This document shows positions 72 through 28,952 of a DNA stretch of 46,277 nucleotides, piece by piece (within the stretch, counting starts at the first letter, position 1; every line of letters starts with the position of its first letter). Both the position numbers and the translations under genes were made by a program. The notes beneath the pieces were generated by a model. It searched no databases, was not told the DNA's origin, and saw only the letters and a list, made by a program, of their open reading frames with translations. The stretch covers positions 1 to 46,277 of the forward strand of contig SMWZ01000028.1 of assembly GCA_004356455.1 (NCBI GenBank). The letters run 5' to 3'. The stretch is from Deltaproteobacteria bacterium. Lineage in GTDB: Bacteria > Myxococcota_A > UBA9160 > SZUA-336.

Positions 72-1274
72 CTAGCGCGGGGTGAGGCGGATGGGGATCT
101 CGCGGATCGAGTTGGTGAGGTTCGAGCGTAGTCGTCTGGAGGGACCGGTGAGCTCGGCCCGGCTGAAGCAGCGGAAGAACTCCTCGAAGAAGACCTGCGC
201 CTCGAGGCGAGCGAGACGAGCGCCGAGGCAGAAGTGCTCCCCCCAGCCGAAGGCCAGGTGCGGGTTCGGGTCGCGCCGGATGTCGAAGCGGAAGGGCTCC
301 TCGAAGACCTCCTCATCGAAGTTGGCCGAGGTGTAGTGCAGCGCCACGCGATCGCCCTCCCGGATCTTCTTGCCCCGCAGCTCTACGTCGCGAGTGGCCG
401 TGCGCCGAAAATAATGCACCGGTGTGGTCCAGCGCAGCATCTCTTCGATCGCGGTCGGGAGCAGGGCAAAGTCGGACTCGAGCTCGCGGTAGGCCCGAGG
501 GTTCTCAAGCAGGGCCAGCATGGCCCCCGCGAGCAAGCTGCGGCTGGTCTCGTTGCCGGCGACCGCGATCTGCACGAAGAGAGCCGCGAACTCCACCTCG
601 TTCAGCGGGTGCCCCTCAAGCTCCGCGTTCAACATGAGCGAGATCAGATCCTTGCCCCCCCTGCCCTTGCGCTCGTTCGCCAGCTTGAAGCCGTAGGCGC
701 CCAGCTCGGTCGCCGAGTTGGCCGCGGCATCCCTCGCCGCGACCTCCGGATCGGTCCTTCCGATCAGCTTGTCCCCCAGCTCGACGATCCGCAGGCGATC
801 CGCCTCGGGGATGGCCATGATCTGGTTGATGGTCTGTAGCGGCAGCTCGGCGGCCAGATCGCGCACGAAATCGCAGTCGCGCTTCTCGGCTGCAACCTGC
901 ATGATCTCGCGCGCCCGTGCGCGCAGCCACGGCTCCAGCTCGGCAATCATGGTCGGCGTGAAGGCGTCGAGCACGATGCGCCGGATTCGGATGTGCTCGG
1001 GTGGGTCCATGCTCAAGAGCTGGGTGCGCATGGCGGCGAGCTGCTGAGGCGACTGGTCCTCGATGATGATGCCCCCGCGTGCGGCGGAGAAGGTCTGCCA
1101 ATCCTTGGACGCCGCCATTACATCGGCGTGCTTGAGCAGAGCCCAGTAGCCGGCGCCCTCGGGCAGCTCCTGCCAGAAGACGGGCTCCTGGGCGCGCAGC
1201 AGCGCGAAGGTCTCGTGGGGCACCGCCTTTACGTAAAGGTCGGGATCGTAGATGTTGACGTCCTCGAGCTTCAC
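72..1274 (-). CDS. Cytochrome P450, CYP125/CYP124/CYP126-like clan
   Basis: 400 aa; I-helix AVAGNETSR, EEMLR (ExxR), heme motif FGWGEHFCLG. GTG start overlaps the ferredoxin TGA (GTGA). Exact family not assignable by eye. Confidence 0.9.
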   Translation of the reverse strand: MKLEDVNIYDPDLYVKAVPHETFALLRAQEPVFWQELPEGAGYWALLKHADVMAASKDWQTFSAARGGIIIEDQSPQQLAAMRTQLLSMDPPEHIRIRRIVLDAFTPTMIAELEPWLRARAREIMQVAAEKRDCDFVRDLAAELPLQTINQIMAIPEADRLRIVELGDKLIGRTDPEVAARDAAANSATELGAYGFKLANERKGRGGKDLISLMLNAELEGHPLNEVEFAALFVQIAVAGNETSRSLLAGAMLALLENPRAYRELESDFALLPTAIEEMLRWTTPVHYFRRTATRDVELRGKKIREGDRVALHYTSANFDEEVFEEPFRFDIRRDPNPHLAFGWGEHFCLGARLARLEAQVFFEEFFRCFSRAELTGPSRRLRSNLTNSIREIPIRLTPR

Positions 1275-1468
1275 GCTTCCTCCAGCAAGAGCGCCCGCGT
1301 GGGGCAGTACTTGACCGCCAGCTCGACCTTCGAGCGTAGATCCTGCGGCGGCTGCTCCTGGAGCAGCACGAGCTCCCCGCTCTCCTCATCGAGCTCGAAG
1401 ACCTCCGGTGCCTCGGACGCGCACACGCCGTGCGCCTGACACAGGTCCCGATCGAGCTTGACCTTCAT
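1271..1468 (-). CDS. fdx: 3Fe-4S ferredoxin (P450 redox partner)
   Basis: 65 aa MKVKLDRDLCQAHGVCASEAPEVF...YCPTRAL; CxxHxxC...CP motif like the Mtb ferredoxin Rv0763c next to cyp51. The true start is ATG 1468, inside the longer track ORF. Confidence 0.93.
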   Translation of the reverse strand: MKVKLDRDLCQAHGVCASEAPEVFELDEESGELVLLQEQPPQDLRSKVELAVKYCPTRALLLEEA

Positions 1469-1481
1469 CGGATGGTCTCCC

Positions 1482-2882
1482 TCAGGCACGCCGCCGATAC
1501 CGCACGCGGCAGGGCTGCACGAGCTGCACCACCATCTTCGAGTGGTCGTTGCGATAGCTCTCCGATGGCTGGAGCATCTCGAAGCTGTAGCGGCGCAGCA
1601 GGATGCTGAAGATCGCCTTGAGCTGCATGATGGCAAAGGCGGCCCCGATACAGCGATGCCGCCCCCCGCCGAAGGGGATCCAGGCGAAGACGCGCTGGTC
1701 CTCCTGGCGCCCGGGCCGGTAGCGTTCCGGGTCGAAGCGTTCAGGGTCGGGAAAGCATTCCGGCATTCGGTTCGAGACGGCGATCGATGCGGCCACCAGT
1801 TTCCCCGCCGGGACGGTCCAGCGCTTGTAGTGGAAGTCGTACATGACCTTACGCAGCACGATGATGAGCGGTGGATGCAGACGCAGCGTCTCCTTGATCA
1901 CGTTCTCGAGCTCGGGGATCTCGCGCAGCGCCTGGTAGCTCACGTCGACCCCATCGGCGTAGATCTGCTCGAGCTCGGCCACGACCCGATCCATGTAGAC
2001 GGGGTTGCGCAGCAGCTCGATCAATGTCCACGCGGCCGTGCCGGAGGTCGTGTGGTGGCCTGCAAACATCATAGAGATGAAGATGCCGGTGATCTCGTCC
2101 GGCGTGTAACGGGGGCGACCGCCATCGTGATACAGGCTCGTGAGCACCTGGAGCAGGTCGTTGGGCTTGCGGCCCTCGGCCTTTCGCTGCTCGATGATCC
2201 CGACGATCATCTCCACCAGCCGCCTGCGGGCCTGGTCCCGCTTGCGGAAGGACGGCAGCGGTAGATAGGGGTTTACATACGCGATCGCGTCGGTGCCCCT
2301 CTCGAGCTCGTGATACTGGGTCGCGAACTCGGGGGTCAGCTCCTCTCGGAACTCCTTTCCGAGCAGGCAGGCGCTCGAGGTATAGATCGTGAGCTCCGCG
2401 AAGAAGTCGAGCAGGTCGATCTCCCCCTCTTCGCCCCAGCCCGCGAGCATGCGCTCGGTCTCGTCCGCGATCACCTGGGCGTGACCACGCATGAATTTGT
2501 CACGCAGCGAACGGTTGCGGAGCGCCTGCTTGCGCTGCTCGGGCGGCGCGTCGAAGACAACGCCCGCGCCGAAGATCGGCTTCATGAAGGGATAGGCCGC
2601 GGCCTGATCGAGCTGCTCGTCGGACGCGCGAAAAAAAGCCTCGTTTCCCTCCTCGCCCGTCAGCAGGACAACACGGTGGCCCGCCAGGTTGAACTCGCCG
2701 ATCTCTCCGCACTCGTCGCGCACCCGTTGCATCAGCGCGATCGGCCGGCGCCGCAGCTCGAGCAGATGACCGAGCCAGGGCAACCCTCCGGAGAGCTTGG
2801 GGGGATCGGAGCCCCTCGCAGCAGGCGCGGGCGTCTGAGTCGCAGCGGGAGACGCGACGGAGGCCGGGGTCGCGCTACTCAT
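1482..2882 (-). CDS. cyp51: Sterol 14-alpha-demethylase CYP51 (CYP51B-type)
   Basis: Long segments near-identical to recalled Mtb CYP51B1 (LMQRVRDECG, LDQA.AYPFM.PIFG.GVVFDA, FFAELTIYTSSACL.GK, FISMMFAGHHT, SYRNDHSKMVVQL); heme motif FGGGRHRCIG. Start chosen at ATG 2882 (track ORF starts 2912). Confidence 0.95.
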   Translation of the reverse strand: MSSATPASVASPAATQTPAPAARGSDPPKLSGGLPWLGHLLELRRRPIALMQRVRDECGEIGEFNLAGHRVVLLTGEEGNEAFFRASDEQLDQAAAYPFMKPIFGAGVVFDAPPEQRKQALRNRSLRDKFMRGHAQVIADETERMLAGWGEEGEIDLLDFFAELTIYTSSACLLGKEFREELTPEFATQYHELERGTDAIAYVNPYLPLPSFRKRDQARRRLVEMIVGIIEQRKAEGRKPNDLLQVLTSLYHDGGRPRYTPDEITGIFISMMFAGHHTTSGTAAWTLIELLRNPVYMDRVVAELEQIYADGVDVSYQALREIPELENVIKETLRLHPPLIIVLRKVMYDFHYKRWTVPAGKLVAASIAVSNRMPECFPDPERFDPERYRPGRQEDQRVFAWIPFGGGRHRCIGAAFAIMQLKAIFSILLRRYSFEMLQPSESYRNDHSKMVVQLVQPCRVRYRRRA

Positions 2883-2991
2883 CCCGAGCCCAGCCGAGCT
2901 CCCCCAGCGCACGTGCGGTGGCTGCGCCGATCCCGGACGACGCGCCCGTGACGAGCGCGGTGCGAGCCTCGGTAGCGAGCTTCCGGCTCAC
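2875..2991 (-). pseudogene. Remnant of a short-chain dehydrogenase (Rv0765c-like), N-terminal Rossmann fragment only
   Basis: Hand translation: MSRKLATEARTALVTGASSGIGAATARALGELGWARDE*. Contains the TGxxxGIG SDR motif; GTG start overlaps the cyp123 TGA; ends on the cyp51 start. Confidence 0.85.
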
Positions 2992-4166
2992 GGGGAGAAC
3001 TCAATCGGCATGGACGCGAAGCCACGCACGTTGATCGAGTGTACGCGCACCAGCTTCTCCCAGGCGATCTCGAAATTAGGGAAGCGCCTTTGGACCTCTT
3101 CCAGAGCTACCCGGCCCTCGAGCCGGGCCAGGGCCGCCCCCATACAGAAGTGCGTTCCGTAGCCGAAGGAGAGCATGGCGTTGGTGTTGCGCATGAGATC
3201 GAAGCGATCCGGATGCTCCCACACGCGTTCGTCGCGGCTCGCCGCCCCCAGGATCACGACCAGGCGGTCTCCCTCCTGGAGCTTCTCGCCGTGCAGCTCC
3301 AGATCCTGGGTCAGAGTGCGCGCCAGGGCCTGGGTCGAGCCGTCGTAGCGCAGCGTCTCCTCGATCCAGCGTGGGATCAAGCTCGGGTCGGAGCGAACCT
3401 TCTCGCGCTCCTGGGGGTTCTTCGAGATCCAGTAGAGGGCGTTGCCGAGCAGCTTCGTGGTGGTCTCGTTGCCCGCGATGATCATCAGGAAGAGAAAGCC
3501 GAGGACCTCTCGTGGGGTCAGACGATCGCCCTCGATCTCCGCCGCAAGCAGCGCACCGGTGAGATCGTCGTGAGGATGCTTCTCCCGGTCCGCGACCAGC
3601 TCCTGGAAGTAGTTGAGTATCTTTGCGGCCGCCTCCATGCCGGCGGGAGGGACGTCCAGCATGCCGTCCTCGCGGTGCAGGACGGTATCCGCCCAGCTTC
3701 GCAGGGGATCGCGATCCGCTTCGGGCACACCCAGCATCTCGCTGATGACGTCCATCGGGAGCTTCCCCGCGAACTCCTGGATGAAGTCACACTCGCCCCG
3801 GCCGATGAATCCATCGATGTGGCCCGTCGCGATCTCGCGAATGCGCGGCTCCAGGTTGGCCACGCGGCGCGGCGTGAAGGCGCGGTAGACCAGGGCGCGC
3901 ATGCGCGTATGGCGCGGTGGGTCCATCGCCAGGAATGACATGGTGGCATCCGCATCCGGGTGGGTAGCCGACGGATCGAGGGAGACCCCGTCGCGGCTTG
4001 AGTAGAGCTCTGTATCCCGCAGCGCGGCCTGTACGTCGGCGTGCCGCGACAGTGCCCAGAACCCGAGCTCTCGGTTGCGATAGGCGGGCGCCTCGTCGCG
4101 AAGACGCTTATAGATGGGGTACGGGTCCTCCTGGGTTGCGTAGGCGTAGGGGTTGTACTCGACCAT
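2988..4166 (-). CDS. cyp123: Cytochrome P450, CYP123-like
   Basis: 392 aa from ATG 4166; matches recalled Mtb CYP123 (EFAGKLPMDVISE, AD.VLHREDG..DVPP, FLFLM.IAGNETTTKLL, VRVHS.NVRGFA); heme motif FGYGTHFCMG. Confidence 0.88.
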   Translation of the reverse strand: MVEYNPYAYATQEDPYPIYKRLRDEAPAYRNRELGFWALSRHADVQAALRDTELYSSRDGVSLDPSATHPDADATMSFLAMDPPRHTRMRALVYRAFTPRRVANLEPRIREIATGHIDGFIGRGECDFIQEFAGKLPMDVISEMLGVPEADRDPLRSWADTVLHREDGMLDVPPAGMEAAAKILNYFQELVADREKHPHDDLTGALLAAEIEGDRLTPREVLGFLFLMIIAGNETTTKLLGNALYWISKNPQEREKVRSDPSLIPRWIEETLRYDGSTQALARTLTQDLELHGEKLQEGDRLVVILGAASRDERVWEHPDRFDLMRNTNAMLSFGYGTHFCMGAALARLEGRVALEEVQRRFPNFEIAWEKLVRVHSINVRGFASMPIEFSP

Positions 4167-4195
4167 GCGCGAGGACCTCGCTCGAGCTTTGGGCC

Positions 4196-4224
4196 ACCTT
4201 ATTCCATTTACATTTCGCCTGCAA
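4196..4224 (-). promoter_or_regulatory. Putative sigma70-type promoter for the P450 operon
   Basis: Minus strand TTGCAG-17 nt-TAAGGT, 30 nt upstream of the cyp123 ATG, in an AT-rich intergenic patch. Confidence 0.5.
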
Positions 4225-4242
4225 GGCAAATTCTGATATGCT
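4214..4242 (+). promoter_or_regulatory. Putative sigma70-type promoter (extended -10) for dehydrogenase-TetR-MBL
   Basis: TTCGCC-17 nt-TATGCT with TGn directly before the -10; overlaps the divergent promoter. Confidence 0.45.
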
Positions 4243-4277
4243 GGCGCCCGCATTAGCTCGGGGGATCGACCATCACC

Positions 4278-5135
4278 ATGCGTGCGGGATTCATCGGACT
4301 CGGCAACATCGGTGCGCCCATGGCTGAATGGCTGGTGAAGAGCTCCTTTGAAACGACCGTCTACGACACCAACCCCGAGGCGGTCCGGGAGCTGGTCGCC
4401 GCGGGAGCCCGAGCCGCGACCTCGGGCCGCGAGCTGGCCGCGGCCAGTGACGTGATGGGCGTCTGCGTGCGCGATGACGCCGACGTGCTCGACGTGGTGC
4501 TGGGCGAGGATGGACTGCTGGCGGGAGCCACCCCCGGCAGCGTGATCGCGCTCCACAGCACCATCTTGCCGCGCACGGTGACAGAGGTGGGCCGGCTCGC
4601 TGCCAAACGCGGCGTGGGTGTGGTGGACGCATGCATCACCGGAGGCCGGGCGGGCGCCCAGCAGGGCACGCTCACCTATATGGTGGGGGGCGAGAGCGAG
4701 CACCTGGAACGTGTGCGCCCCGCCTTGGAGACCTCGGCCGCCAAGATCATTCACACGGGGCCGCTGGCCAGCGGCGCCGCCACCAAGCTCTGCAATAACT
4801 TGATGACCTATCTGGGGTTCCTCGCGGCCTTCGAGGCCACTCACCTCGCGCGCAACGCGGGTCTCTCGCAGCAGGCGCTCGAGGAAGTCACCGCCACGAA
4901 CGGAAACATGAGCCAACAGATGCTGCGCTTCCTGGCGCTGCATAAGGTCTCACCCGAGCAGCAGAAGAGCGAGAGCTTCCAGACGGTGATCCGCAGCTAC
5001 GCCGACCTGGCCGAGAAGGATCTGACCGTCACCCTCGCCTTTGCGCGCGAGAACGGCGTGACCCTGCCCGGCACCGCGCTCTGCCAGCAGCTGATGGCGC
5101 GGGTCTACGGAGTTCTGGACGAGAATCGCCGCTGA
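4278..5135 (+). CDS. NAD(P)-dependent beta-hydroxyacid dehydrogenase (3-hydroxyisobutyrate dehydrogenase family, Rv0770-like)
   Basis: GFIGLGNIGAPMA Rossmann motif, VDACITGG, catalytic KLCNN. Confidence 0.9.
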   Translation: MRAGFIGLGNIGAPMAEWLVKSSFETTVYDTNPEAVRELVAAGARAATSGRELAAASDVMGVCVRDDADVLDVVLGEDGLLAGATPGSVIALHSTILPRTVTEVGRLAAKRGVGVVDACITGGRAGAQQGTLTYMVGGESEHLERVRPALETSAAKIIHTGPLASGAATKLCNNLMTYLGFLAAFEATHLARNAGLSQQALEEVTATNGNMSQQMLRFLALHKVSPEQQKSESFQTVIRSYADLAEKDLTVTLAFARENGVTLPGTALCQQLMARVYGVLDENRR

Positions 5136-5149
5136 GACAAGGCCCAGCC

Positions 5150-5806
5150 GTGACCGAAGCTACACACACCCACCTGCCGCTTCCCCCCAGAGGGCGTCGC
5201 TCGCACGCCGAGCGCACAGCGGAGACGCGCGCAAGGATCATCGCGGCCGTGGTGGAGAGCATCGCGGAGGTGGGATTTCAGCGCACCACGGCCAGCGAGA
5301 TCGCACAGCGAGCGGGCGTCACCTGGGGCGCCGTTCAGCATCACTTCGGGGCCAAGGACGGCATGCTCGTGGCCGCACTGGAGAACTCTTTCAATCGCTT
5401 CGCCCAGCGACTCGGAAATATCCCGCTCGAGGGAACCTCGCTCGAGAAACGTGCCTCGCTCTTCATCGATCGCGCCTGGGAGCACTTCAGCAGCGCCGAG
5501 TATCGCTCCACCTTCGAGATCCTGTTGAACTACCTCGGACGCGATGACCTGGAGCAGCACCCGACCTGGCAGGAGCGGATGTTCCGAGCCTGGGACCGGA
5601 TCTGGCTGCGCCTGTTCGGGGACGCTCCGCTTCCGCGACGGCGTCGTTTCGTGCTCCAGCACTATACGATCTCCGCGCTCTCGGGCCTGGCCTCTACACT
5701 CATGTTGGAAGGCGGAGAGGCGCGGCTGCGGAAGGGCGAGCTCGATCTGCTCAAGGACACCCTGGCACGAGAGCTCAGCCAGGGCATGCAAGACAGCGTG
5801 CGCTGA
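5150..5806 (+). CDS. TetR/AcrR family transcriptional regulator
   Basis: N-terminal HTH GFQRTTASEIAQRAGVTWGAVQHHFGAKDGML. Confidence 0.93.
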   Translation: MTEATHTHLPLPPRGRRSHAERTAETRARIIAAVVESIAEVGFQRTTASEIAQRAGVTWGAVQHHFGAKDGMLVAALENSFNRFAQRLGNIPLEGTSLEKRASLFIDRAWEHFSSAEYRSTFEILLNYLGRDDLEQHPTWQERMFRAWDRIWLRLFGDAPLPRRRRFVLQHYTISALSGLASTLMLEGGEARLRKGELDLLKDTLARELSQGMQDSVR

Positions 5807-5840
5807 AGCCGGCATGAGACGAATTTTCTAGACTGTCCCG

Positions 5841-6926
5841 ATGGCGCGCCGACAAGAACAGGAGAGTGCTCGCAAGGAGGTGACGGAGGTCGCCCCGAAC
5901 GTGCTCCGCATGGAGCTGCCGATCCACATGCCGGGACTCGGCCACGTGAACTGCTACGCGCTGATCGATGGCGAGGGGGCGACGCTGGTGGATCCCGGTC
6001 TGCCCGGGCCGCTCACCTGGCGCGCCATCCAGGACCGGCTGAAGCGCGCGGGGCTGCGCGTGAAGAACGTGCATACGATCATCGTGACGCACTCCCATCC
6101 CGACCATTTCGGCGGTGCATTGCGCCTCCAGCGAGCGTCTGGGGCGCGCGTGGTCGCTCATCGCAGCTTCAGCTTCGGACCGATCCGGCCCGTCATCCTG
6201 GAGCCCGAGGTCTCGGTGGATGATCTGTCGGCACAGGTCGAGGCGCAGGTCGAGACGGAGGCCGAGGAAGAGGAAACCCGACCCCGCACAAGAGACCGCG
6301 GCCTAACCCCGTGGGGCGGCCAACGACCCGGCTTCACCCTGCGTCAGCGTCTCGTCTGGAGAACCTTGCGCTTTCTCCAGCGCGGCTCGTTCCTGCCCAC
6401 CATCACCCACCCCGTGAAGCATGGCGACGCGCTGCGGCTGGCCGGCCGCGACTTCTTCATGCTGCACACCCCGGGTCACACCGAGGATCATCTGTGCCTG
6501 CACGATCCGGAAAGCGGGACGCTGCTGGCGGGCGACCACGTACTGCCCACGATCACGCCCCATATCTCCGGTCTAACCTCGACGGCCGATCCGCTGGCCG
6601 ATTTCTTCGACTCGCTCGACCGCGTGGGCGAGGTGCCCAACGTCAAGCAGGTGCTACCCGCCCACGGTCACCCGTTCACCGACCTGCGCGGCCGCGCCCA
6701 GGCGATCAAACGCCACCACCACGAGCGGCTCGCTAAGGTCAAAGCGATCTCACGCGAGCTCGGCCCGGCCAGTGTCCAGGCCTTCTCCCACAAACTCTTC
6801 CGGCCGCGAAGCTGGGGTCCCATGGCCGAGAGCGAGACCTACGCGCATCTCGAGCACCTGCGCCTCCTGGGCGAGGCCGAGTGTGTCAAGGGCAAGGGTG
6901 GCCAGCTGGTGTACGTGGCAGGCTGA
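5841..6926 (+). CDS. Metallo-beta-lactamase fold hydrolase
   Basis: THSHPDH, HTPGHTEDH, LAGDH and PAHG metal-binding motifs; C-terminal winged-helix-like tail (ESETYAHLEHL). Confidence 0.9.
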   Translation: MARRQEQESARKEVTEVAPNVLRMELPIHMPGLGHVNCYALIDGEGATLVDPGLPGPLTWRAIQDRLKRAGLRVKNVHTIIVTHSHPDHFGGALRLQRASGARVVAHRSFSFGPIRPVILEPEVSVDDLSAQVEAQVETEAEEEETRPRTRDRGLTPWGGQRPGFTLRQRLVWRTLRFLQRGSFLPTITHPVKHGDALRLAGRDFFMLHTPGHTEDHLCLHDPESGTLLAGDHVLPTITPHISGLTSTADPLADFFDSLDRVGEVPNVKQVLPAHGHPFTDLRGRAQAIKRHHHERLAKVKAISRELGPASVQAFSHKLFRPRSWGPMAESETYAHLEHLRLLGEAECVKGKGGQLVYVAG

Positions 6927-6944
6927 GTCCGGCTCGAGCCGCGC

Positions 6945-8997
<2,053 letters not shown>

Positions 8998-9020
8998 CTA
9001 CCTTGGCCGGCAGGTCCGGG

Positions 9021-10196
9021 TCACGCGCTCCCCAGAACGAGCCCACTGGTCGGGACGCCGGTGCCCGCCGTGACGAGAACGTGCTCGACATCCGCGATCT
9101 GGTTCACCGCCGTGCCCCGGACCTGGCGCACCGCCTCGCAGATCCCATTCATGCCGTGGATGTAAGCCTCTCCGAGCTGGCCGCCGTTGGGGTTGATAGG
9201 GAGAGCGCCGTCGAGCTCGATGTTCCCGTCCGCGATGAAATGACGCGCCTCGCCCCGATCGCAGAAGCCCAGCTCCTCGAGCTGGGTAAGCACGAAGGGC
9301 GTGAAGTGATCGTAGATCACGGCGCACTGAACGTCGGCCGGCTCAAGACCCGAGTGCTGCCACAGCTGATGACCCACCAGACCCATCTCCGGCAGCCCGG
9401 TGATGTCGCTGCGGTAGTAGCTGGTCATCACCTCCTGGTCCAAGCTCGAGCCTTGTGCGCTGGCGCGGATCAGGGCCGGAGGCTGCGCCAGATCCCGGGC
9501 GCGCTCGCTACGCGTCACGACCAGAGCCACCGCACCATCGCTCTCCTGACAGCAGTCCAGCAGATGGAGCGGCTCGACGATCCAGCGGGAGCTCTGATGC
9601 TCCTCGAGCGTGATCGAATGCTCGTAGAACCAGGCCTTGGGGTTGGTCGCGGCGTGCTTGCGGGCCGCCACGGCGACACGGCCGAAGTCCTCACTGGTGG
9701 CGCCGTACTCGTGCATGTACCGACGAGCGAACATGGCGACCCAGGCCGCCGGCGTTACCAGGCCGAAGGGCGCGTACCAATGGGTCGGGATCTGAGCGCC
9801 GGGCGGCGGGGGCGGCGGCTGCTGGCCCGATCCGAAGCGACGCCCGGAGCGCTCGTTCAAGGCTCGGTAGCACACCACGGCGTCGGCCGAGCCGGTTGCC
9901 ACGGCCATGGCCGCCTGATGGATCGTCGCGCAGCCGGCACCGCCACCGTAGTGAACGCGGCTGAAGTGGGTCAGGCTGGGAATGCCGAGACCGCGAGCCA
10001 CATCGATCTCAAGATTCGAGTCCTGCGCGAAGGTGACCATGCCATCGATATCGGCCGGCGAGAGGCCCGCGTCGGCGATGGCGGCCCGGACGGCTTCGAC
10101 GGCCAGCTGGAGCTCGCTGCGACCCGATTTCTTCGAGAACTCGGTCGCCCCAATCCCAACGATCGCCGCCTCATCCTTGAGCGTGGACCTCGGCAT
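9021..10196 (-). CDS. ltp2: Ltp2-like steroid side-chain retro-aldolase (thiolase fold, lipid-transfer protein family)
   Basis: Matches recalled Mtb Ltp2 (AAIVGIGAT.FSK.SGRSEL, HYGGGA, LLDCCQE.DGA, YDHFTPF, GGQLGEAYIHGMNG, HVLVTAGTGVPTSGL). Start chosen at ATG 10196. Confidence 0.92.
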   Translation of the reverse strand: MPRSTLKDEAAIVGIGATEFSKKSGRSELQLAVEAVRAAIADAGLSPADIDGMVTFAQDSNLEIDVARGLGIPSLTHFSRVHYGGGAGCATIHQAAMAVATGSADAVVCYRALNERSGRRFGSGQQPPPPPPGAQIPTHWYAPFGLVTPAAWVAMFARRYMHEYGATSEDFGRVAVAARKHAATNPKAWFYEHSITLEEHQSSRWIVEPLHLLDCCQESDGAVALVVTRSERARDLAQPPALIRASAQGSSLDQEVMTSYYRSDITGLPEMGLVGHQLWQHSGLEPADVQCAVIYDHFTPFVLTQLEELGFCDRGEARHFIADGNIELDGALPINPNGGQLGEAYIHGMNGICEAVRQVRGTAVNQIADVEHVLVTAGTGVPTSGLVLGSA

Positions 10197-10204
10197 CCCC
10201 GGGC

Positions 10205-10609
10205 TCAACTCGCGCGTGGCCGCCACAGCGGCAGCGTCCACTCGTCATGCACGCGAACGAAGCACACCTCCACGGGCATGCCGATGCAGACGTTAGCCGG
10301 ATCGATCTCGATCACATTGCCAACGACGCGTGTCCCCTCCTCGAGCTCCACCAGCGCAACCGCGAAGGGAGGATCGAACCCCGGCACGGGAGGATGGTGA
10401 TGAACCACGAAGCTGTAGACCTCTCCGCGACCGCTGGCCGTGACGTGGTTCCACCCCAGCGACTGACACGACGAGCACATGGGACGGGGCGGGTGGCGCA
10501 GCGTCCCGCACGACTGACAGCGCTGGATGCGAAGCTCGTCCTTCTCGACCCCTTCCCAGAAGAACGCCGAGTCCGCGTTCATGGTGGGCTGAGGCCGCCG
10601 GGCCGTCAA
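10205..10609 (-). CDS. DUF35 Zn-ribbon/OB-fold protein (equivalent to the ChsH2 C-terminal domain)
   Basis: AFFWEGV...ELRIQRCQSC...RHPPRPMCSSC...SGRGEVYSFVVHH...ALVELEEG; TTG start overlaps the upstream TGA. Confidence 0.9.
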   Translation of the reverse strand: MTARRPQPTMNADSAFFWEGVEKDELRIQRCQSCGTLRHPPRPMCSSCQSLGWNHVTASGRGEVYSFVVHHHPPVPGFDPPFAVALVELEEGTRVVGNVIEIDPANVCIGMPVEVCFVRVHDEWTLPLWRPRAS

Positions 10610-11640
10610 TTTTCCGGCACGCCGTAACGAAGCAGGGTGAACATGTTGGTGCCCACGATCTCATCACGTTGGTTGTAGTAGGTGTTCAGGTTCTTCTGGA
10701 AGTATCCCAGTCCGAGGCGTGTGCGCTTCAGGGGAGAGCAGTCGAGCAGCTCCACGGTAGAGGACACTCGGTCGCCCGGGCGCAAAGGCCGACCATAGGC
10801 TTGAACCGAGACCGTCGCAATCGTATCAGTCGCGCCCGGCGGCGTGAACATCGCGCTGCGTCCGGCCCCGTCTCCTGTGCGAGGCGGCCATGGCTTGCGC
10901 TCGAGGCAGTCGACGTCCGGTGCATTCGCATCTACGCCACTATGACCCGCACGCCCCATCGACCAGGTGATCAGCGCCATGGGCGGTGCGATCACCCCCC
11001 CGTGCCGGCTCTTTCTCGCGTATTCAGCATCGATGTAGAGGGGGTTACCGTCTTCGACCATGTCACACCAGTACATGATCTGGACCTCGCTCACGGGATA
11101 GCCTCCCCGCATGAGCGGACTGACCTTTCCGAGCCGCTCGCGGGCAAAGTCGGGAATCTGCGGGTCCACTTCCAGTTCGGGCTTCTTCAGCTCGAGCGAC
11201 GGCCGAACCGCTCCAGAATCGCGCGAGGGCATTACGAGCGTAGCGCTTGCACGTGCCGCCACCCCCAGCTCGTTCGACGCCTCCAGCCCGACCTCGACCC
11301 GGCACTCGTCGCCTTCCCGAAACTTCCGCTTGACGCTGCCCTTTACGAGGGCGACATCGCCCGGCACAAGCTGCCCAAGCATCTGCAGACTGGTCTCTCG
11401 AAAGTCGCTCTCGGGTCCGCACCAATCCGTCACGAAGCGTCCGAAGAGCGCCTGCTCGAACATGGTGTTGACGAACATGTCGCGGTTGCCGATCGATTTC
11501 GAGTAGCCCGGATTGTGATGGTACGGCATCAGGTCGCGCGTGCCGCACACACCGAGCACGAGCGTCTTGAGCGTAATCGGGAAGCGCAGGACCGGAAGCT
11601 TCTCCCCCTCGCACACATCCTCCCAGTACTTGAAGTCCAT
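10606..11640 (-). CDS. Double hotdog (MaoC) steroid enoyl-CoA hydratase: ChsH1-like domain fused to ChsH2-N-like domain
   Basis: N-half TRDLMPYHH...DMFVN...RFVTDWCGP resembles ChsH1 with the catalytic D-x4-H intact. C-half PVSEVQIMYWCDMVEDGNPLY...GVIAPPMA..TWSM resembles the ChsH2 MaoC domain. Confidence 0.85.
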   Translation of the reverse strand: MDFKYWEDVCEGEKLPVLRFPITLKTLVLGVCGTRDLMPYHHNPGYSKSIGNRDMFVNTMFEQALFGRFVTDWCGPESDFRETSLQMLGQLVPGDVALVKGSVKRKFREGDECRVEVGLEASNELGVAARASATLVMPSRDSGAVRPSLELKKPELEVDPQIPDFARERLGKVSPLMRGGYPVSEVQIMYWCDMVEDGNPLYIDAEYARKSRHGGVIAPPMALITWSMGRAGHSGVDANAPDVDCLERKPWPPRTGDGAGRSAMFTPPGATDTIATVSVQAYGRPLRPGDRVSSTVELLDCSPLKRTRLGLGYFQKNLNTYYNQRDEIVGTNMFTLLRYGVPEN

Positions 11641-11649
11641 CAGCTCGGA

Positions 11650-12366
11650 TCAGTCCAGCAGCGAAGGATCGCGCGCGAGCTCGCGACGCGCGTAGGCTTC
11701 GAAGAGCATCTCACCGTACTCCAGCGCATAGCGTGACAGGGCTTCGGCGGTCTCCGAGTCAAGCTCCTCGCGCTGCTTGCCCATGCACGCCACCTCGTAG
11801 GCCTTGCGGCAGCGCCACTCGAAGCTCAGTGCTCGCACCAGCACCTCGCCGACGGTCGTGGCCGTAACCAGCGTCCCGTGCTGCGCCAGGATGGCCATGT
11901 CGGCCGAGCCATAGGCCGCCGCCAGCCGGGCCGCCACCGCAGGCGTGAGGACCGCCCCCTCGTACTCAGTGTAGAGCACGGCCTTCCCGCCTCCGTTGGC
12001 ACCTGACTGATCGAGCAGCGGCGGGAGCTCGCCGGCTGCGGCCCAGATGGTTCCGTAGGGAGGGTGGTTGTGCAGCGCCACGCGGATGTCCGGTCGCGCT
12101 CGATGCAGCTCGCCATGAAAGACAATGGTGGGATTCGCTCGGCCCTCGCCCTGCAACACCTGGCCAGCGTAGTCCACGCGCAGGATGTGACTGGCACGAA
12201 CCTCCTCCCAGAAGAGGCCAACGGGGGTCACGAGCAGCGTCTCGTCGTCCCGGTCTCGGATGCTTACATGCCCGGCCAGCTTGTCGTCATAGCCCTGGGA
12301 GCCCAGGATGCGGACCAGCAGCGCGAGCTGCTGGCGAGGGGAAAACTTAACAGCCGGGTCACTCAC
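11650..12366 (-). CDS. Class II aldolase/adducin family protein
   Basis: GHVSIRD, LLVTPVG, FHGELHRARPDIRVALHNHPPY, ILAQHG. Confidence 0.88.
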   Translation of the reverse strand: MSDPAVKFSPRQQLALLVRILGSQGYDDKLAGHVSIRDRDDETLLVTPVGLFWEEVRASHILRVDYAGQVLQGEGRANPTIVFHGELHRARPDIRVALHNHPPYGTIWAAAGELPPLLDQSGANGGGKAVLYTEYEGAVLTPAVAARLAAAYGSADMAILAQHGTLVTATTVGEVLVRALSFEWRCRKAYEVACMGKQREELDSETAEALSRYALEYGEMLFEAYARRELARDPSLLD

Positions 12367-24556: not shown

Positions 24557-25177
24557 CTAGTCCGAGCGCAGCTCGGACTCGATCACATCGCTCACCCGGC
24601 CCACGAGCACATTCAAGGCGCGGCCGATAGCGCGCGAGACCGAGACTGGATCGTCACCGGGGATGGGCTCCACCGTGGTGAAGGTGCGCTCCAGGCGAGC
24701 GATCCCCTTGCGATCGAAGAGCAGAACGCGCAGCTCGAGACGCGCCTGGTGCCGAGGTGTGAGCACCTCCTCGAAGGCCAAAAGCTCCACCTCGAGCAGG
24801 GGCGCCCGACCGGCCGTCGCGCGCCGCAGTCCGCGCACCTCGAAGAGCTGGCGCGAGAGCCGCTGCTCGACGTAGTGGGCCGGCAGCTCGGTCCAGCGTC
24901 GGGTGTCGTAGAAGCCGAACTCCACGTCCGAGGTGCGCCAGACGATGCGTTCCTTCAGATGTGCCGCGGAAGTCACCCGGTGCAGCCGCAGTGCGGGCGC
25001 GGTTGATCCTGCCCCAGGCGCCCCGTCCAGGGCGGATTCCACGCGCGCCGGCGGCTCGGGCCGGAAGTAACGGGGGGCCTCGGGACGACCGCCCAGCAGA
25101 CACGCACAGAGCAGACCCATTGCGCCCAGGACCACAGCCAGGCGTATCTGAATGCCTGCTTCACCGAACGCGCTCAT
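24557..25177 (-). CDS. ABC-type transport auxiliary lipoprotein (PqiC-like)
   Basis: Signal/lipobox (LLCAC); LRLHRVTSAAHL..RIVWR, RWTELPA; last gene of the mlaEFD operon. Confidence 0.82.
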   Translation of the reverse strand: MSAFGEAGIQIRLAVVLGAMGLLCACLLGGRPEAPRYFRPEPPARVESALDGAPGAGSTAPALRLHRVTSAAHLKERIVWRTSDVEFGFYDTRRWTELPAHYVEQRLSRQLFEVRGLRRATAGRAPLLEVELLAFEEVLTPRHQARLELRVLLFDRKGIARLERTFTTVEPIPGDDPVSVSRAIGRALNVLVGRVSDVIESELRSD

Positions 25178-26097
25178 GGCCTCCCCCGTGGACCCAGATC
25201 GCTGCTGCGCCCCCGGAGCACGGCGCTCGGGTCGCGCTCGAGCGTATCGGCCAGCGCGCGAACCGACTGCAGTGCCTCACGCAGCGGAACCAGCTCGCCT
25301 CGCAGCTCGCCGCTGAGTCCGGTGGCCTCATCGGCAGCCTCGGCCACGGAGTCCGCAGCCTGCCGGATGGACGCCATGGTCCTGCCCACGTCGGCCATCT
25401 GAATCGCGGAGTCGAGGCTCGAGGCCGCCCGCTCGAGGCTCGTGGCGGCCGCCTCGAGCCGCGCCACCAGCAGCGCCATACCCTCACCGCCCTCTTTGGG
25501 CTCGATGAACAAGCGCACGGCCCTGAACGTCTCCGACGCCTCCGCCAGCGCGATCGACGCGTCCAGCTCGATCTCCGGGAAGCGGTTGAGGACCTCCATT
25601 ACGGCGTCGCCTGCGCTCTTGAGTGTTGACGGCGTGGAAGGGAAATAATTCCAGGGCGGCTTAAAGGACAGCTCCTGTGACTCCAGTTCTTCGGGGTCGA
25701 AGACATTGACCTGCAGAAACATGAGACCGGTAATGCCGAGCGGGACGAGCTGGATGCGCATGTCCAGGGGCACGATCCCGCCTCCGGACTCGGGGGGGGC
25801 CCCCTCCCGCACGCCCAGCCGAGCCAGCGCCTTGAGATCCACGTCGCTGACCACCTCCACGTGGCGCCGGTCCGGTGCGATGCCGATGTAGGCCACGCGG
25901 CCGATCCGGACGCCGCGGAACTTGACGGGGGAGCCGACGTCCAGCCCCTGGACGGACTCATCAAAGTAGGACACGACCTGGGTCTTGTTGCGGCTGAGCC
26001 CGACCGTCCCGAGCCAGACGAGGGTCACAAAGCCGAGAATCGAGGTCAGAACCACGAAGAGCCCGAGCTTCCAGCGCTGGCTAGGGTTCAGGGCCAC
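25174..26097 (-). CDS. mlaD: MCE/MlaD family protein
   Basis: N-terminal TM helix (KLGLFVV); YFDESVQGLDVGSPVKFRGVRIG MCE signature; helical C-terminus. Start chosen at GTG 26097. Confidence 0.92.
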   Translation of the reverse strand: MALNPSQRWKLGLFVVLTSILGFVTLVWLGTVGLSRNKTQVVSYFDESVQGLDVGSPVKFRGVRIGRVAYIGIAPDRRHVEVVSDVDLKALARLGVREGAPPESGGGIVPLDMRIQLVPLGITGLMFLQVNVFDPEELESQELSFKPPWNYFPSTPSTLKSAGDAVMEVLNRFPEIELDASIALAEASETFRAVRLFIEPKEGGEGMALLVARLEAAATSLERAASSLDSAIQMADVGRTMASIRQAADSVAEAADEATGLSGELRGELVPLREALQSVRALADTLERDPSAVLRGRSSDLGPRGRP

Positions 26098-26101
26098 TTC
26101 G

Positions 26102-26830
26102 TTATGCTCCCGGGGAGGTACGGTTGAAAAAGTGCAAGACCCGCTGATCGCTGGCGTGCTCGCGCAGCTCACGCGGATCTCCCTGGGCGATGATACCCTT
26201 CGCTTCTCGATCCAGCATGATGCAGCTCCTGGTGATCTTGAAAATGCTCTCGAGCTCGTGCGTCACGATCACCATCGTCATGCCAAGGCTGGAATTCAGC
26301 GTCAAGATGAGCTCATCCAGCTCCACTGCGGTCACCGGGTCGAGCCCCGCGGACGGCTCGTCCAGGAAGAGCAACGGGGATTCGAGGGCCAACGCCCGAG
26401 CGATGCCCGCACGCTTCTTCATGCCGCCCGAGAGCTCCGCCGGCAGGTAGGCCTCGAAGCCTTCCAACCCGACCAGACGCAGCTTGCTGCGCGCGATCGC
26501 GTCTGTTGCCGCGTCGTCCAGATCGGTCCATTTCTCGAGCGGTAGGCGCACGTTGTCCAGCACGCTCAGCGAACTGAAGAGCGCCCCCGATTGGAACAAC
26601 ACGCCGTAGGACGGAGGCTCACCATTGAGGCCCGGGCGGGTCGCGCCTTCAATCCGAACGCTGCCGCGCAGGGGTTGAAGCAGCCCGACCAGACACTTGA
26701 GCAGGGTCGTCTTCCCACTTCCCGAGCCGCCCAGGATCACGAAGACCTCGCCGCGCTGCACGCTAAAGTTCAGGTTCTCGAGGATGACCGTCTCACCGAA
26801 ACCCAGTGCCAGATTCTCGACGTCGATCAT
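26102..26830 (-). CDS. mlaF: MlaF-type ABC transporter ATP-binding protein
   Basis: GGSGSGKT, LFQSGALF, ELSGGMKKRAGIARA, FLDEPSAGLDP. Confidence 0.94.
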   Translation of the reverse strand: MIDVENLALGFGETVILENLNFSVQRGEVFVILGGSGSGKTTLLKCLVGLLQPLRGSVRIEGATRPGLNGEPPSYGVLFQSGALFSSLSVLDNVRLPLEKWTDLDDAATDAIARSKLRLVGLEGFEAYLPAELSGGMKKRAGIARALALESPLLFLDEPSAGLDPVTAVELDELILTLNSSLGMTMVIVTHELESIFKITRSCIMLDREAKGIIAQGDPRELREHASDQRVLHFFNRTSPGA

Positions 26831-26831
26831 G

Positions 26832-27971
26832 TCAGAAGTCGAACACGTGGCCGAGGATTGTAAAGCCGGCGTCCACCAGGATCAGCACGAACAGGGTGGT
26901 AACGACCGCCGACGTGGTCGCGCGGCCGACGCCCGCTGCACCGCCCTGTGTGGCCAGACCGCGCTGGCAGGCGATCAGCGCGATCGCGGCCCCGAAGAAC
27001 ACGCTCTTGACCAAACCGCCCGCAACATGGTGGCCGCTTCCCAGATCCACCAGCGCGAAGTGGGCCTCGTTCAAGTAAGCAGCCACCGTCAGGTCCATCG
27101 CGAAGACGGCCACCACCAGACCTCCCAGCGCGCCCACCACATCGGCGACCAGCGTGAGCATGGGCACCATGACCACGAGCGCGATCAGGCGCGGCAGCAC
27201 CAGAAAGCGATAGGCATCGAGTCGCAACGTCTCGAGGGCGTCGATCTCCTCCGAAACCTTCATCGTGCCCAGCTCCGCGGCATAGGCTGCGCCCGAGCGA
27301 CCCGCGACAACGATTGCGGTCATCAGCGGAGCGAGCTCGCGCACGACCGAAAGCACGACCAGGTCCGCAATGAGAATGTCCGCGCCCACCTGCTCGAGCT
27401 GGACCGCGGCCTGAAAGCCGACCACGAGCCCTACCAGGAAGTTGATGAGGATGATGATCGGGAGACCATCCACCCCGGCCCGCACCATCAAGTCGCCGAG
27501 GTCTCGCCAGTGAACCGACCTCGGCGCGCGCAGCGCGCTGATCGCGTAAGCCAGTACGTCACCTATGAACGCCATCATCGCGCGCAGATCCTCCAGCCAC
27601 TCCAGCGTCAGGCGGCCTACGCGGTCGAAGAAGCCGGCGTCCTCCGGGTGCGGAGGGGCGAGGCGAGCGGGATGAGCCCGATACAGATCCAGCATCGCAC
27701 GCACCCTCCCCTGCGCGCCCACGATCTCGGCCTGCGTGCCTCGCTCCGAGAGCTCGGACTGCAGCTTCAGCAGGAGCGCCGTGCTCCCTCCGTCGAGACC
27801 TTCGACAGCCGATAGGTCGAAGCGCACCGAGCGTGCGGGGCGCTCGAGGAGTTCGCGTACGTCCCGCCAGAGCCGTGACGTGTCTCGGAAGTTCAGCTCA
27901 CCCGAGAAGCGCAGCTCAGCGCGATCGGCCTCGGGATCCACGCGGTTGACTTCGAACGTTCGGTCCGTCAC
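26832..27971 (-). CDS. mlaE: MlaE permease with N-terminal STAS domain
   Basis: STAS (FDLSAVEGLDGG); VRELAPLMTAIVVAGRSGAAYAAELGTMKVSEEIDAL; VGRATTSAVV. Confidence 0.94.
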   Translation of the reverse strand: MTDRTFEVNRVDPEADRAELRFSGELNFRDTSRLWRDVRELLERPARSVRFDLSAVEGLDGGSTALLLKLQSELSERGTQAEIVGAQGRVRAMLDLYRAHPARLAPPHPEDAGFFDRVGRLTLEWLEDLRAMMAFIGDVLAYAISALRAPRSVHWRDLGDLMVRAGVDGLPIIILINFLVGLVVGFQAAVQLEQVGADILIADLVVLSVVRELAPLMTAIVVAGRSGAAYAAELGTMKVSEEIDALETLRLDAYRFLVLPRLIALVVMVPMLTLVADVVGALGGLVVAVFAMDLTVAAYLNEAHFALVDLGSGHHVAGGLVKSVFFGAAIALIACQRGLATQGGAAGVGRATTSAVVTTLFVLILVDAGFTILGHVFDF

Positions 27972-28136
27972 GGCGGTGTGATGCGCTCCCTGGCTGGGAA
28001 TACGTCAGGATAGCGAAGCAACCGGAGAGGTGAAGTTTCGCAACGAACCCGATAGGATGCAGCCAGAGCACAGGGCCAAGCGAAGAACAGAGACAATAGA
28101 GACATTACACAGACAAGACTGAACAGGAAGGGATTC

Positions 28137-28952
28137 ATGTCGCAGCGCATCTCCGTCTCTTTCGAGGAGGGCGTGGCCGATGTGCGTCTCAGCCGGCCCG
28201 AGAAGCTGAACGCACTCGATCAGGCCATGTTCGAGGGTCTGCTCCAGACGGGCACCGAGCTGGCATCCAACCGCGCGTTGCGCGCGGTCGTTCTTTCCGG
28301 GGAAGGGCGCGCGTTCTGTGCGGGTCTCGACTTCTCGGGCTTCGCCGGCATGGCGAGCAAGGAGCGCGGGCCGGAGGAGATCGGCAGCAGGCTGTTGCGC
28401 CGAGGCCCCAACAGTCCTGCTAACTGGGCCCAACGGGCGGCTTACGTCTGGACGGAGCTGCCCGTTCCCGTGATCGCAGCCGTGCACGGTGTGGCGTTTG
28501 GCGGCGGCTTCCAGATCGCGATGGGGACCGACATCCGCTACGTCGCGCCCGACGCGCAGCTCTCGGTGATGGAGATCAAGTGGGGTTTGATCCCGGACAT
28601 GACTGGCTCCCAGACCTTACGGCGGCTCGTGCGGTTGGACGTGGCCAAGGAGCTCACATTCACGGGCCGAATCGTGTCGGGCCGCGAGGCCCTGGAGCTC
28701 GGCCTGGCGACTTACGTGAGCGAGACGCCCAGGGAGGACGCGCTGGCACTCGCCCGCGAGATCGCGAGCCGGTCGCCCGACGCAATTCGTGCGGGGAAGC
28801 GGCTGCTCAACGCATCGGGCCTGCTGAGTCTGGAGGAAGGCCTGCTGCTGGAGGAGAAGCTGCAGACTGGCCTGATCGGCACGCCCAACCAGATGGAGGC
28901 GGTCCGGGCCACCATCGAGAAGCGCGAGCCGAACTTCAAAGACCCGGAATAG
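28137..28952 (+). CDS. Crotonase/enoyl-CoA hydratase family protein
   Basis: RPEKLNAL, GRAFCAGLD, AFGGGFQ, MEIKWGLIPDM. Confidence 0.92.
   Translation: MSQRISVSFEEGVADVRLSRPEKLNALDQAMFEGLLQTGTELASNRALRAVVLSGEGRAFCAGLDFSGFAGMASKERGPEEIGSRLLRRGPNSPANWAQRAAYVWTELPVPVIAAVHGVAFGGGFQIAMGTDIRYVAPDAQLSVMEIKWGLIPDMTGSQTLRRLVRLDVAKELTFTGRIVSGREALELGLATYVSETPREDALALAREIASRSPDAIRAGKRLLNASGLLSLEEGLLLEEKLQTGLIGTPNQMEAVRATIEKREPNFKDPE

Follow-up and report, generated by a model that had tools for sequence, protein, structure and literature searches.

In Mycobacterium tuberculosis, CYP51B1 is encoded in the Rv0761c-Rv0771 region (cyp123-Rv0765c-cyp51-fdx-Rv0762c, with the TetR gene Rv0767c and Rv0770), and the side-chain degradation genes ltp2, chsH2, chsH1, fadE29, fadE28, cyp125 and fadA5 form the igr/fadA5 cluster (Rv3540c-Rv3546). 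In Methylococcaceae, Mycobacteriales and uncultured Myxococcota, CYP51 and its ferredoxin travel together with an NTF2-like 8,14-sterol reductase termed Bsr (Lee, Giner, Welander 2026, PMC13277303). The same study raised the idea that sterol degraders may use CYP51-Fdx-Bsr to modify lanosterol from outside the cell (PMC13277303). Some bacteria, M. tuberculosis among them, have CYP51 but make no sterols, and what the enzyme does there is a long-standing question that a one-off gene neighbourhood does not settle. Here we describe one such neighbourhood, a cyp51 operon (module 1) and a FadA5-Ltp2 gene string (module 2) that share the first 12 kb of contig C83. The window analysed here is this entire contig of 46,277 bp. 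The host is a metagenome-assembled genome (MAG) of a member of the Myxococcota, not an actinobacterium. We lean towards the view that two separately regulated steroid modules have become neighbours in one uncultured Myxococcota lineage that degrades steroids and makes no sterols.

The gene map was built from coding-frame statistics combined with family searches (Pfam, NCBIfam, phmmer). A first-pass annotation, made from the DNA letters, had described the region as a steroid-catabolic supercluster around CYP51 and had read the linkage as pointing to a catabolic role for bacterial CYP51. All the genes that it listed were recovered by family and sequence searches, and its three cytochrome P450 calls (CYP51, CYP123-like and CYP125/124-clan) were borne out in the same way. 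The supercluster itself shrank to a 12-kb island of steroid genes, which is real. No kshA-, kstD-, hsa- or ipd-type ring-degradation gene lies in the window, such genes being placed on other contigs, and the remainder of the contig is housekeeping.

The CYP51 of the window matches characterised CYP51s at the family level. In phmmer searches it matched M. tuberculosis CYP51B1 at E 4.7e-182, and the next CYP51 group (6mcw/6mi0/7jj1) at 7.5e-149. CYP51 enzymes carry a B'-helix/B'C-loop signature of the form YxxF..P.FG..V.FD, an (A)GHHT motif in helix I and a haem cysteine loop of the form FG.G.H.C.G. The translation contains AAYPFMKPIFGAGVVFDA, MMFAGHHTTSG and FGGGRHRCIGAAFA at these signatures, with the motifs YPFMKPIFGAGVVFD, FAGHHT and FGGGRHRCIG plainly legible. 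The gene is present in a single copy in the genome, and its real start may be the ATG at 2882. By tblastn, the nearest CYP51 loci belong to MAGs labelled Myxococcota or Deltaproteobacteria (65-76% identical), followed by actinobacterial (Mycobacterium/Nocardia) loci at 59-65%.

The genes around cyp51 form a compact and largely conserved block. The small ferredoxin gene begins 13 nt past the cyp51 stop, with a GGGAGA ribosome-binding site ahead of its ATG, and ferredoxins 47-61% identical to it come after cyp51 in relatives. Judged by gene order and similarity, this ferredoxin is the putative cognate redox partner of CYP51. The CYP123-like P450, whose start we moved to the ATG at 4166, has orthologues of 58-69% identity adjoining cyp51 in Myxococcota relatives. 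It shares 53-55% identity with a P450 located upstream of cyp51, at a distance of ~2 kb, in Mycobacterium/Mycolicibacter loci (L043, L056, L071), which we take to be CYP123 from the known gene order of M. tuberculosis and not from annotation. Membership of CYP123 was defined as more than 40% identity together with synteny with the P450 upstream of mycobacterial cyp51, and the protein shows both. Alongside, HIBADH-like orthologues (50-68% identical) adjoin the cyp block in relatives, and TetR orthologues (54-71% identical) are linked to cyp51 in Myxococcota loci. The TetR-family protein is a probable repressor of the cyp operon.

The window departs from this conserved arrangement directly after the ferredoxin. 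We collected CYP51 loci from GTDB species, 80 in all, each with flanks of up to 10 kb. Their conserved neighbours were Bsr (42 loci), short-chain dehydrogenases/reductases (SDR; 42), aldehyde dehydrogenases (26), TetR regulators (21), HIBADH-like proteins (14), LLM oxidoreductases (13), FadD19-family ligases (13, in Nocardia/Rhodococcus) and KstD-like PRK07121 flavoproteins (11). Bsr is the most frequent downstream neighbour of cyp51 in these loci, and most CYP51-bearing relatives carry it at E ~1e-85, mostly adjoining cyp51-fdx. In the genome studied here, no Bsr match was found by tblastn at 1e-8 or by a genome search at 1e-5, and the slot after the ferredoxin is filled by the CYP125/124-clan P450. 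Its GTG start overlaps the TGA stop of the ferredoxin gene as GTGA, indicating translational coupling. The best orthologue of this P450 in relatives is 67% identical (G016) and lies away from CYP51. Characterised CYP125-clan P450s initiate side-chain degradation. A CYP125-clan P450 in the place of Bsr, apparently served by the same ferredoxin, is the best local pointer towards catabolism, ahead of the nearby FadA5 and Ltp2 genes.

The far end of this operon is also represented on a second contig. Positions 1-896 of C109 are a 96%-identical reverse copy of positions 1-896 of the window, comprising the 3' part of the P450 gene and the intergenic region. C109 probably stems from a strain variant that was co-assembled with this genome and caused the break in the assembly at this point. 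Beyond the overlap it carries an ABC transporter and then a large HExxH protease-like gene, with no Bsr and no biosynthetic gene. Since C109 runs into the ABC transporter, the operon ends at the CYP125-clan gene, at least in the co-assembled strain variant.

In two relatives the Bsr gene lies away from cyp51, ~0.6 kb from a KshA_C-type Rieske oxygenase gene (G008:C24:83856-85557 and G018:C32:23314-25006), and in four others (G059, G045, G040, G044) a KshA_C-type gene lies 1-7 kb from cyp51. Such genes near Bsr or cyp51 may encode SdmA-like sterol C4-demethylases instead of KshA.

The cyp51 block appears to have its own regulation. We predict an inverted-repeat operator with the consensus ATTTACAT-N10-ATGTAAAT in the promoter region from which the P450 operon and the HIBADH-TetR genes diverge. 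It is common to the aligned upstream regions of the CYP123-like orthologues in L093, L092, L010, L006 and L008, and sits directly ahead of a -10-like TAnGnT. The copy in the window, with 2 mismatches, is the sole good match across the 3.4-Mb genome. Thus, the cyp operon, together with the HIBADH-TetR genes that diverge from it, would constitute an autonomous unit. Neither this operator nor a KstR box is present at the FadA5-Ltp2 string. The KstR operator TnnAACnnGTTnnA has 0 strict matches in the window, and the matches with 3 mismatches are all intragenic. Two short palindromes, one at 4238-4253 and one at 7693-7717, do not resemble one another.

The genetic background of the host is that of a steroid degrader. 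The genome carries three KshA_C-type Rieske oxygenases (on C25, C87 and C92), about eight Ltp/DUF35 pairs and, on C134, a FadD3 equivalog (768 bits, cut-off 657) together with a KstD-family flavoprotein. An igr-like side-chain cluster on C181 encodes a CYP125-like P450, FadE pairs, FadD19- and FadD17-like ligases, an Hsd4A-like SDR, FadA5, Ltp2, ChsH-type hydratases and DUF35. Four KstR-type boxes (TAGAACGTGTTCTA and variants, at 7969, 15587, 15631 and 18315) precede the CYP125-like P450 and FadE genes of C181, which points to a putative KstR regulon of the mycobacterial style in this myxobacterium.

The first-pass annotation had noted the lack of sterol-biosynthesis genes in the window and had named osc and sqe elsewhere in the genome as the sign of a sterol producer. 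Domain searches found neither an SQHop_cyclase nor a squalene epoxidase domain in the 90%-complete genome, in favour of its catabolic proposal. Could CYP51 nevertheless be biosynthetic here, with the cyclase, the epoxidase and Bsr encoded in the ~10% of the genome outside the bin? The assembly leaves some room for this, with a completeness of 89.8% (2.2% contamination) over 236 contigs, and a genus of the same family, g11, has CYP51 together with a strong cyclase match. However, this would require three independent markers, the cyclase, the epoxidase and Bsr, to be missing at once. The four relatives with the nearest-branching CYP51 (G003, G016, G041 and G048; 89-96% complete) are likewise without a strong cyclase match, a CYP125-clan gene stands in the place of Bsr, and the continuation on C109 brings no biosynthetic gene. 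We therefore consider a biosynthetic role very improbable.

The distribution of CYP51 across the class points in the same direction. Co-occurrence was scored in 61 genomes, with CYP51 counted at 56% identity or more, as raw counts that ignore kinship. KshA_C is found in 31 of 35 CYP51-bearing genomes versus 10 of 26 without CYP51 (Fisher p 6.5e-5). Co-occurrence with Ltp2 is weak (p 0.02), and across the same 61 genomes there is none with cyclase (p 0.25-0.76). Among the CYP51-bearing genomes, 23 of 35 have no cyclase match of any kind; KshA_C is present in 21 of these 23 and Ltp2 in 22. In the CYP51 tree, for which frames were chosen by the haem motif and four divergent paralogues (43-48% identical, without the exact motif) were left out, genomes with and without cyclase interleave, with at least four changes of state and an actinobacterial clade nested among them. 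This interleaving implies that the same CYP51 orthologue serves likely sterol producers and non-producers alike. The CYP51 of the window branches among the relatives without cyclase.

The tree also bears on a further explanation, in which the cyp51 block remodels scavenged sterols for use in the membranes of the cell or in signalling, or acts on a non-sterol terpenoid, and its catabolic neighbours are irrelevant. This would fit the occurrence of the same orthologue in cyclase-bearing, presumably sterol-producing relatives, as well as the conservation of the block as an autonomous TetR unit without catabolic genes. Moreover, Bsr gives end-product 8(14)-sterols in methanotrophs, and both CYP51 and Bsr are dispensable in mycobacteria (PMC13277303). 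The replacement of Bsr by a P450 of a side-chain-degrading clan, the wealth of steroid-catabolic genes in this genome and the co-occurrence of CYP51 with KshA-type genes all argue against remodelling, which we regard as improbable.

The genes of module 2 have clear counterparts in steroid side-chain degradation. FadA5 scores 670.4 bits against the NCBIfam equivalog NF005889 (cut-off 515) and matches the M. tuberculosis FadA5 structure 4UBV at E 3e-169. Ltp2 matches chain A of the Thermomonospora curvata structure 6OK1 at E 3e-183 and scores 676 bits against NF005892. Both have paralogues on C181, 65% identical for FadA5 and 63% for Ltp2. The free-standing DUF35 protein corresponds to the C-terminal domain of ChsH2, and its gene overlaps that of Ltp2. 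With the match of Ltp2 to 6OK1, the DUF35 domains and the overlapping genes, the pair has the features of an Ltp2-DUF35 docking module. Ltp2 orthologues of 79% identity occur in the family relatives G008, G009, G013 and G018, where the order is ChsH2-DUF35-ChsH1-Ltp2 with split MaoC genes and without FadA5 or CYP51. DUF35 orthologues (67-69% identical) adjoin the Ltp2 orthologues in relatives.

The hydratase that the first-pass annotation had called ChsH-type is indeed a MaoC-type double hot-dog enzyme; it consists of one fused chain that resembles ChsH1 and ChsH2 only distantly (E 1.5e-13 and 4.5e-8), and its gene overlaps the DUF35 gene by 4 nt. A search of 225 genomes of the class found no orthologue in the window's own family. 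Full-length orthologues of 65-73% identity occur in 23 genomes from only two other families, where they come after an acyl-CoA dehydrogenase gene pair and rarely lie near Ltp2 (loci L099-L110). This suggests that the fused hydratase was acquired horizontally and that its function is not bound to Ltp2. Hydantoinase A/B or family III CoA-transferase genes are sometimes present at these loci. As Ltp2/DUF35 and the fused hydratase keep different partners elsewhere, module 2 is best read, from sequence comparison, as a mosaic and as a paralogous second copy outside the KstR-box regulon. The class II aldolase gene, the first of the string, lies 43 bp downstream of rdgB, and no homologue of it was found in the CYP51 loci or near the Ltp2 orthologues.

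Is the neighbourhood of the two modules itself informative? The first-pass annotation had rested its case on the linkage and had named a linkage unique to this assembly as a ground for giving the case up. CYP51 is present in 38 and an Ltp2 orthologue in 43 of 60 relatives, and in 0 of the 60 do the two lie on one contig within ~80 kb, the nearest pairs being 82 and 160 kb apart. Ltp2/DUF35 lies within 10 kb of cyp51 at a single one of the 80 loci (L057, a Streptosporangiaceae MAG), and there a pentapeptide protein gene, a signal peptidase gene and a KstD-like gene lie between the cyp block and Ltp2/DUF35. With 79 of the 80 loci lacking it, the co-location of cyp51 with ltp2/fadA5 is a peculiarity of this assembly, and by the annotation's own standard the argument from linkage does not hold up as a general one. 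In Nocardia (L020, L023, L030, L035, L048, L053, L054, L058, L076) and Rhodococcus (L041, L045), cyp51 lies near a FadD19-family acyl-CoA synthetase gene (PRK07798, 684 bits), and these loci also hold a 37-41% identical CYP125-clan-like P450, an aldehyde dehydrogenase and a conserved protein of ~420 aa. Side-chain activation close to cyp51 is hinted at more consistently by these loci than by the window.

These data weigh on the explanation that the whole 12 kb is one dedicated pathway, in which the FadA5-Ltp2-DUF35-hydratase set is specialised for 14-methyl sterols made degradable by CYP51. The two modules are ~4 kb apart, whereas for a random gene the chance of lying no more than 10 kb from either FadA5-Ltp2 module of the genome is ~1%, and from one of the other seven Ltp-type loci ~4%. 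Module 2 is a second copy distinct from the KstR-box cluster on C181, as a specialised route would be. A CYP125-clan P450 lies inside the cyp51 operon, the genes for sterol synthesis were not found in the genome, and L057 provides one other, loose co-location. However, the linkage is missing from the relatives and from nearly all CYP51 loci, the modules have no operator in common, and they are convergent, with the oppositely oriented HIBADH-TetR-MBL unit between them. Moreover, module 2 has no acyl-CoA dehydrogenase or CoA ligase genes, lies directly downstream of rph-rdgB, and its parts keep different evolutionary partners (split ChsH genes versus acyl-CoA dehydrogenase pairs). We consider a single dedicated pathway unlikely. 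The same applies to its fullest form, which we regard as doubtful: a TetR-controlled operon of three P450s on one ferredoxin, in which CYP51 was recruited as a catabolic demethylase for lanosterol-, cycloartenol- or 4-methyl-sterol-type compounds, the operon also activates their side chain and a dedicated FadA5/Ltp2/fused-hydratase module shortens it, in marine or soil Myxococcota that lost sterol synthesis or never possessed it. If true, this form would define a first degradation route for 14-methyl sterols and give CYP51B a physiological role in non-producers, including mycobacteria.

We return to two separately regulated modules in a steroid-degrading lineage. Module 1 is the widely conserved cyp51 block under the predicted operator, from which Bsr is absent and to which the CYP125/124-clan P450 has been added in its stead. 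Its one ferredoxin could supply all three P450s, acting on imported sterols. CYP51 would strip the 14α-methyl group from lanosterol- or obtusifoliol-type sterols, the CYP125-clan enzyme may oxidise a terminal methyl group of the side chain to the acid, and the CYP123-like enzyme may hydroxylate the nucleus. The products would then enter CoA-dependent side-chain shortening. Module 2, with its class II aldolase, fused hydratase, DUF35, Ltp2 and FadA5, may receive these products; proximity is the one thing that ties it to module 1. Going by gene content, exogenous sterols are the most likely substrates of the cyp51 block, in a host that degrades steroids.

Of the catabolic role originally proposed for bacterial CYP51, the use of exogenous sterols in a degrader is therefore retained, backed by the steroid-gene background, the replacement of Bsr and the co-occurrence of CYP51 with KshA_C. 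The linkage that had been its main argument is not conserved, and it has no shared operator to sustain it. Several points weigh against our interpretation. The co-occurrence statistics ignore kinship, and the cyclase matches comprise oxidosqualene cyclases and squalene-hopene cyclases together. Some of the KshA_C matches may be Rieske oxygenases other than KshA. The MAG is only ~90% complete, so that an island with cyclase, epoxidase and Bsr could have been left unbinned. The P450 in the Bsr slot can be placed, from its sequence, at the level of the clan only, as scores do not separate CYP125 from CYP124: phmmer gave 2e-127 for a reconstructed CYP125 ancestor, 8e-84 to ~1e-84 for CYP125, 2e-81 for CYP124 and 1.5e-57 for CYP142. 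The neighbourhood as such is a weak hint, not proof, that CYP51 serves sterol breakdown.

Features of the first 12.4 kb of the window, with the evidence for each assignment
Feature	Position	Strand	Evidence and remarks
CYP125/124-clan P450, 400 aa	72..1274	-	Pfam p450; phmmer; last gene of P450 operon
Single-cluster ferredoxin, 65 aa (CxxHxxC...CP type)	1271..1468	-	Fer4_15 E 3e-12
CYP51, CYP51B type	1482..2912	-	phmmer to M. tuberculosis CYP51B1; signature motifs
CYP123-like P450, 392 aa	2988..4166	-	Pfam p450; first gene of operon
Predicted inverted-repeat operator	4206..4231	.	Aligned upstream regions of relatives
HIBADH-like NAD(P) oxidoreductase (Rv0770-like)	4278..5135	+	NAD_binding_2 E 3e-41; under TIGR01692 cut-off
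TetR-family regulator	5150..5806	+	TetR_N E 1e-11
MBL-fold metallo-hydrolase	5841..6926	+	Lactamase_B E 4e-24
START/VanA_C-like + Rieske protein, domain-reversed	6945..7670	-	Rieske E 1e-10
FadA5-type steroid 3-ketoacyl-CoA thiolase	7792..8955	-	NF005889; 4UBV
Ltp2-type retro-aldolase (thiolase-like 'lipid-transfer protein')	9021..10241	-	6OK1; NF005892
Free-standing DUF35 protein (zinc ribbon + OB fold)	10205..10609	-	OB_ChsH2_C E 9e-22; zf-ChsH2 E 9e-11
Fused double hot-dog (MaoC-MaoC) enoyl-CoA hydratase, 344 aa	10606..11640	-	FAS1_DH_region E 2e-14
Class II aldolase/adducin-family protein	11650..12366	-	Aldolase_II E 1.5e-36; under every NCBIfam cut-off

Two further genes lie between those for TetR and FadA5, one in the divergent HIBADH-TetR-MBL unit and one in the FadA5-Ltp2 string. 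None of the 80 CYP51 loci holds a homologue of the MBL-fold hydrolase, which is placed outside the conserved cyp block. The protein encoded at 6945-7670, described at first as Rieske oxygenase-like, does contain a Rieske domain (E 1e-10 at residues 144-212; AndAb-type Rieske ferredoxin, E 4e-8); it is not a standard oxygenase, as the order of its domains is reversed. Its N-terminus gives matches to Polyketide_cyc2 (E 3e-4) and VanA_C (E 0.14). The halves of a Rieske oxygenase are thus swapped and much shortened, with a START/VanA_C-like part of ~140 aa that carries a DWEHLPWL motif and is followed by a Rieske-ferredoxin-like domain. No homologue of this protein was found in any fetched locus.

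Past 12.4 kb, C83 carries rph, rdgB, an amidase, an exonuclease, malic enzyme, IleRS, GatB, LeuRS and other housekeeping genes, and its GC content is 64-70% all along. It also encodes, at 24557-28952, one Mla-type lipid ABC transporter (STAS-MlaE, MlaF, MlaD and an auxiliary lipoprotein), which adjoins an enoyl-CoA hydratase gene and is 12 kb away from the Ltp2 module.

14-methyl sterols are plentiful in plants, fungi and algae. If a catabolic role of CYP51 is correct, it would extend known steroid catabolism to these compounds. Most CYP51-bearing relatives in the class have no cyclase and yet carry markers of steroid degradation. The TetR operator offers a handle on the inducer, and the ligand of the TetR protein could reveal the true substrate.

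Much of this is already known from other work: the cyp51-fdx-cyp123-TetR block, the igr-type side-chain genes and the idea that exogenous lanosterol is the substrate (PMC13277303). What is new here is the variant operon that has lost Bsr and gained a CYP125-clan P450, the operator, the class-level co-occurrence figures and the mosaic module with its single-chain hydratase and free DUF35 protein.

The overall organisation of module 1 is reminiscent of the Rv0761c-Rv0771 region of M. tuberculosis. Both consist of a CYP51B gene with a small ferredoxin gene downstream, a CYP123-like gene upstream, and HIBADH-like and TetR genes alongside, and a block of this type is also conserved in Myxococcota relatives. 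With regard to the possible function of the CYP123-like enzyme, CYP123 of M. abscessus is a steroid hydroxylase (PMC12799577). However, no SDR gene lies between the CYP123-like gene and cyp51 in the window, a CYP125/124-clan P450 is coupled to the ferredoxin, an MBL hydrolase is added, and the host is a member of the Myxococcota. The adjacent ferredoxin is shared with the CYP51-ferredoxin-8,14-Bsr trio, whereas the genome lacks the Bsr of that trio (PMC13277303).

When comparing module 2 with the igr/fadA5 cluster and with the T. curvata ChsH1-ChsH2-Ltp2 system (6OK1), the FadA5, Ltp2 and DUF35 components and the MaoC-type domains are held in common. In contrast to igr/fadA5, the window has no FadE28/29 and no KstR box, the hydratase is fused and DUF35 is a free protein. 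It also adds a class II aldolase-like gene and the domain-reversed Rieske protein, and the igr-like cluster with KstR boxes is found elsewhere in the genome, on C181.

The closest functional precedent is a Mycobacterium sp. that turns lanosterol into a C19 8(14)-steroid, in 1991 work as cited in PMC13277303. In that account, a side-chain degrader that carries CYP51 acts on an exogenous 14-methyl sterol, which is the scenario proposed here. As cited there, the observation is a whole-cell biotransformation by an actinobacterium with Bsr, presented without a genetic link to cyp51, whereas the present case is made from genes alone and concerns a member of the Myxococcota in which a CYP125-clan P450 takes the place of Bsr.

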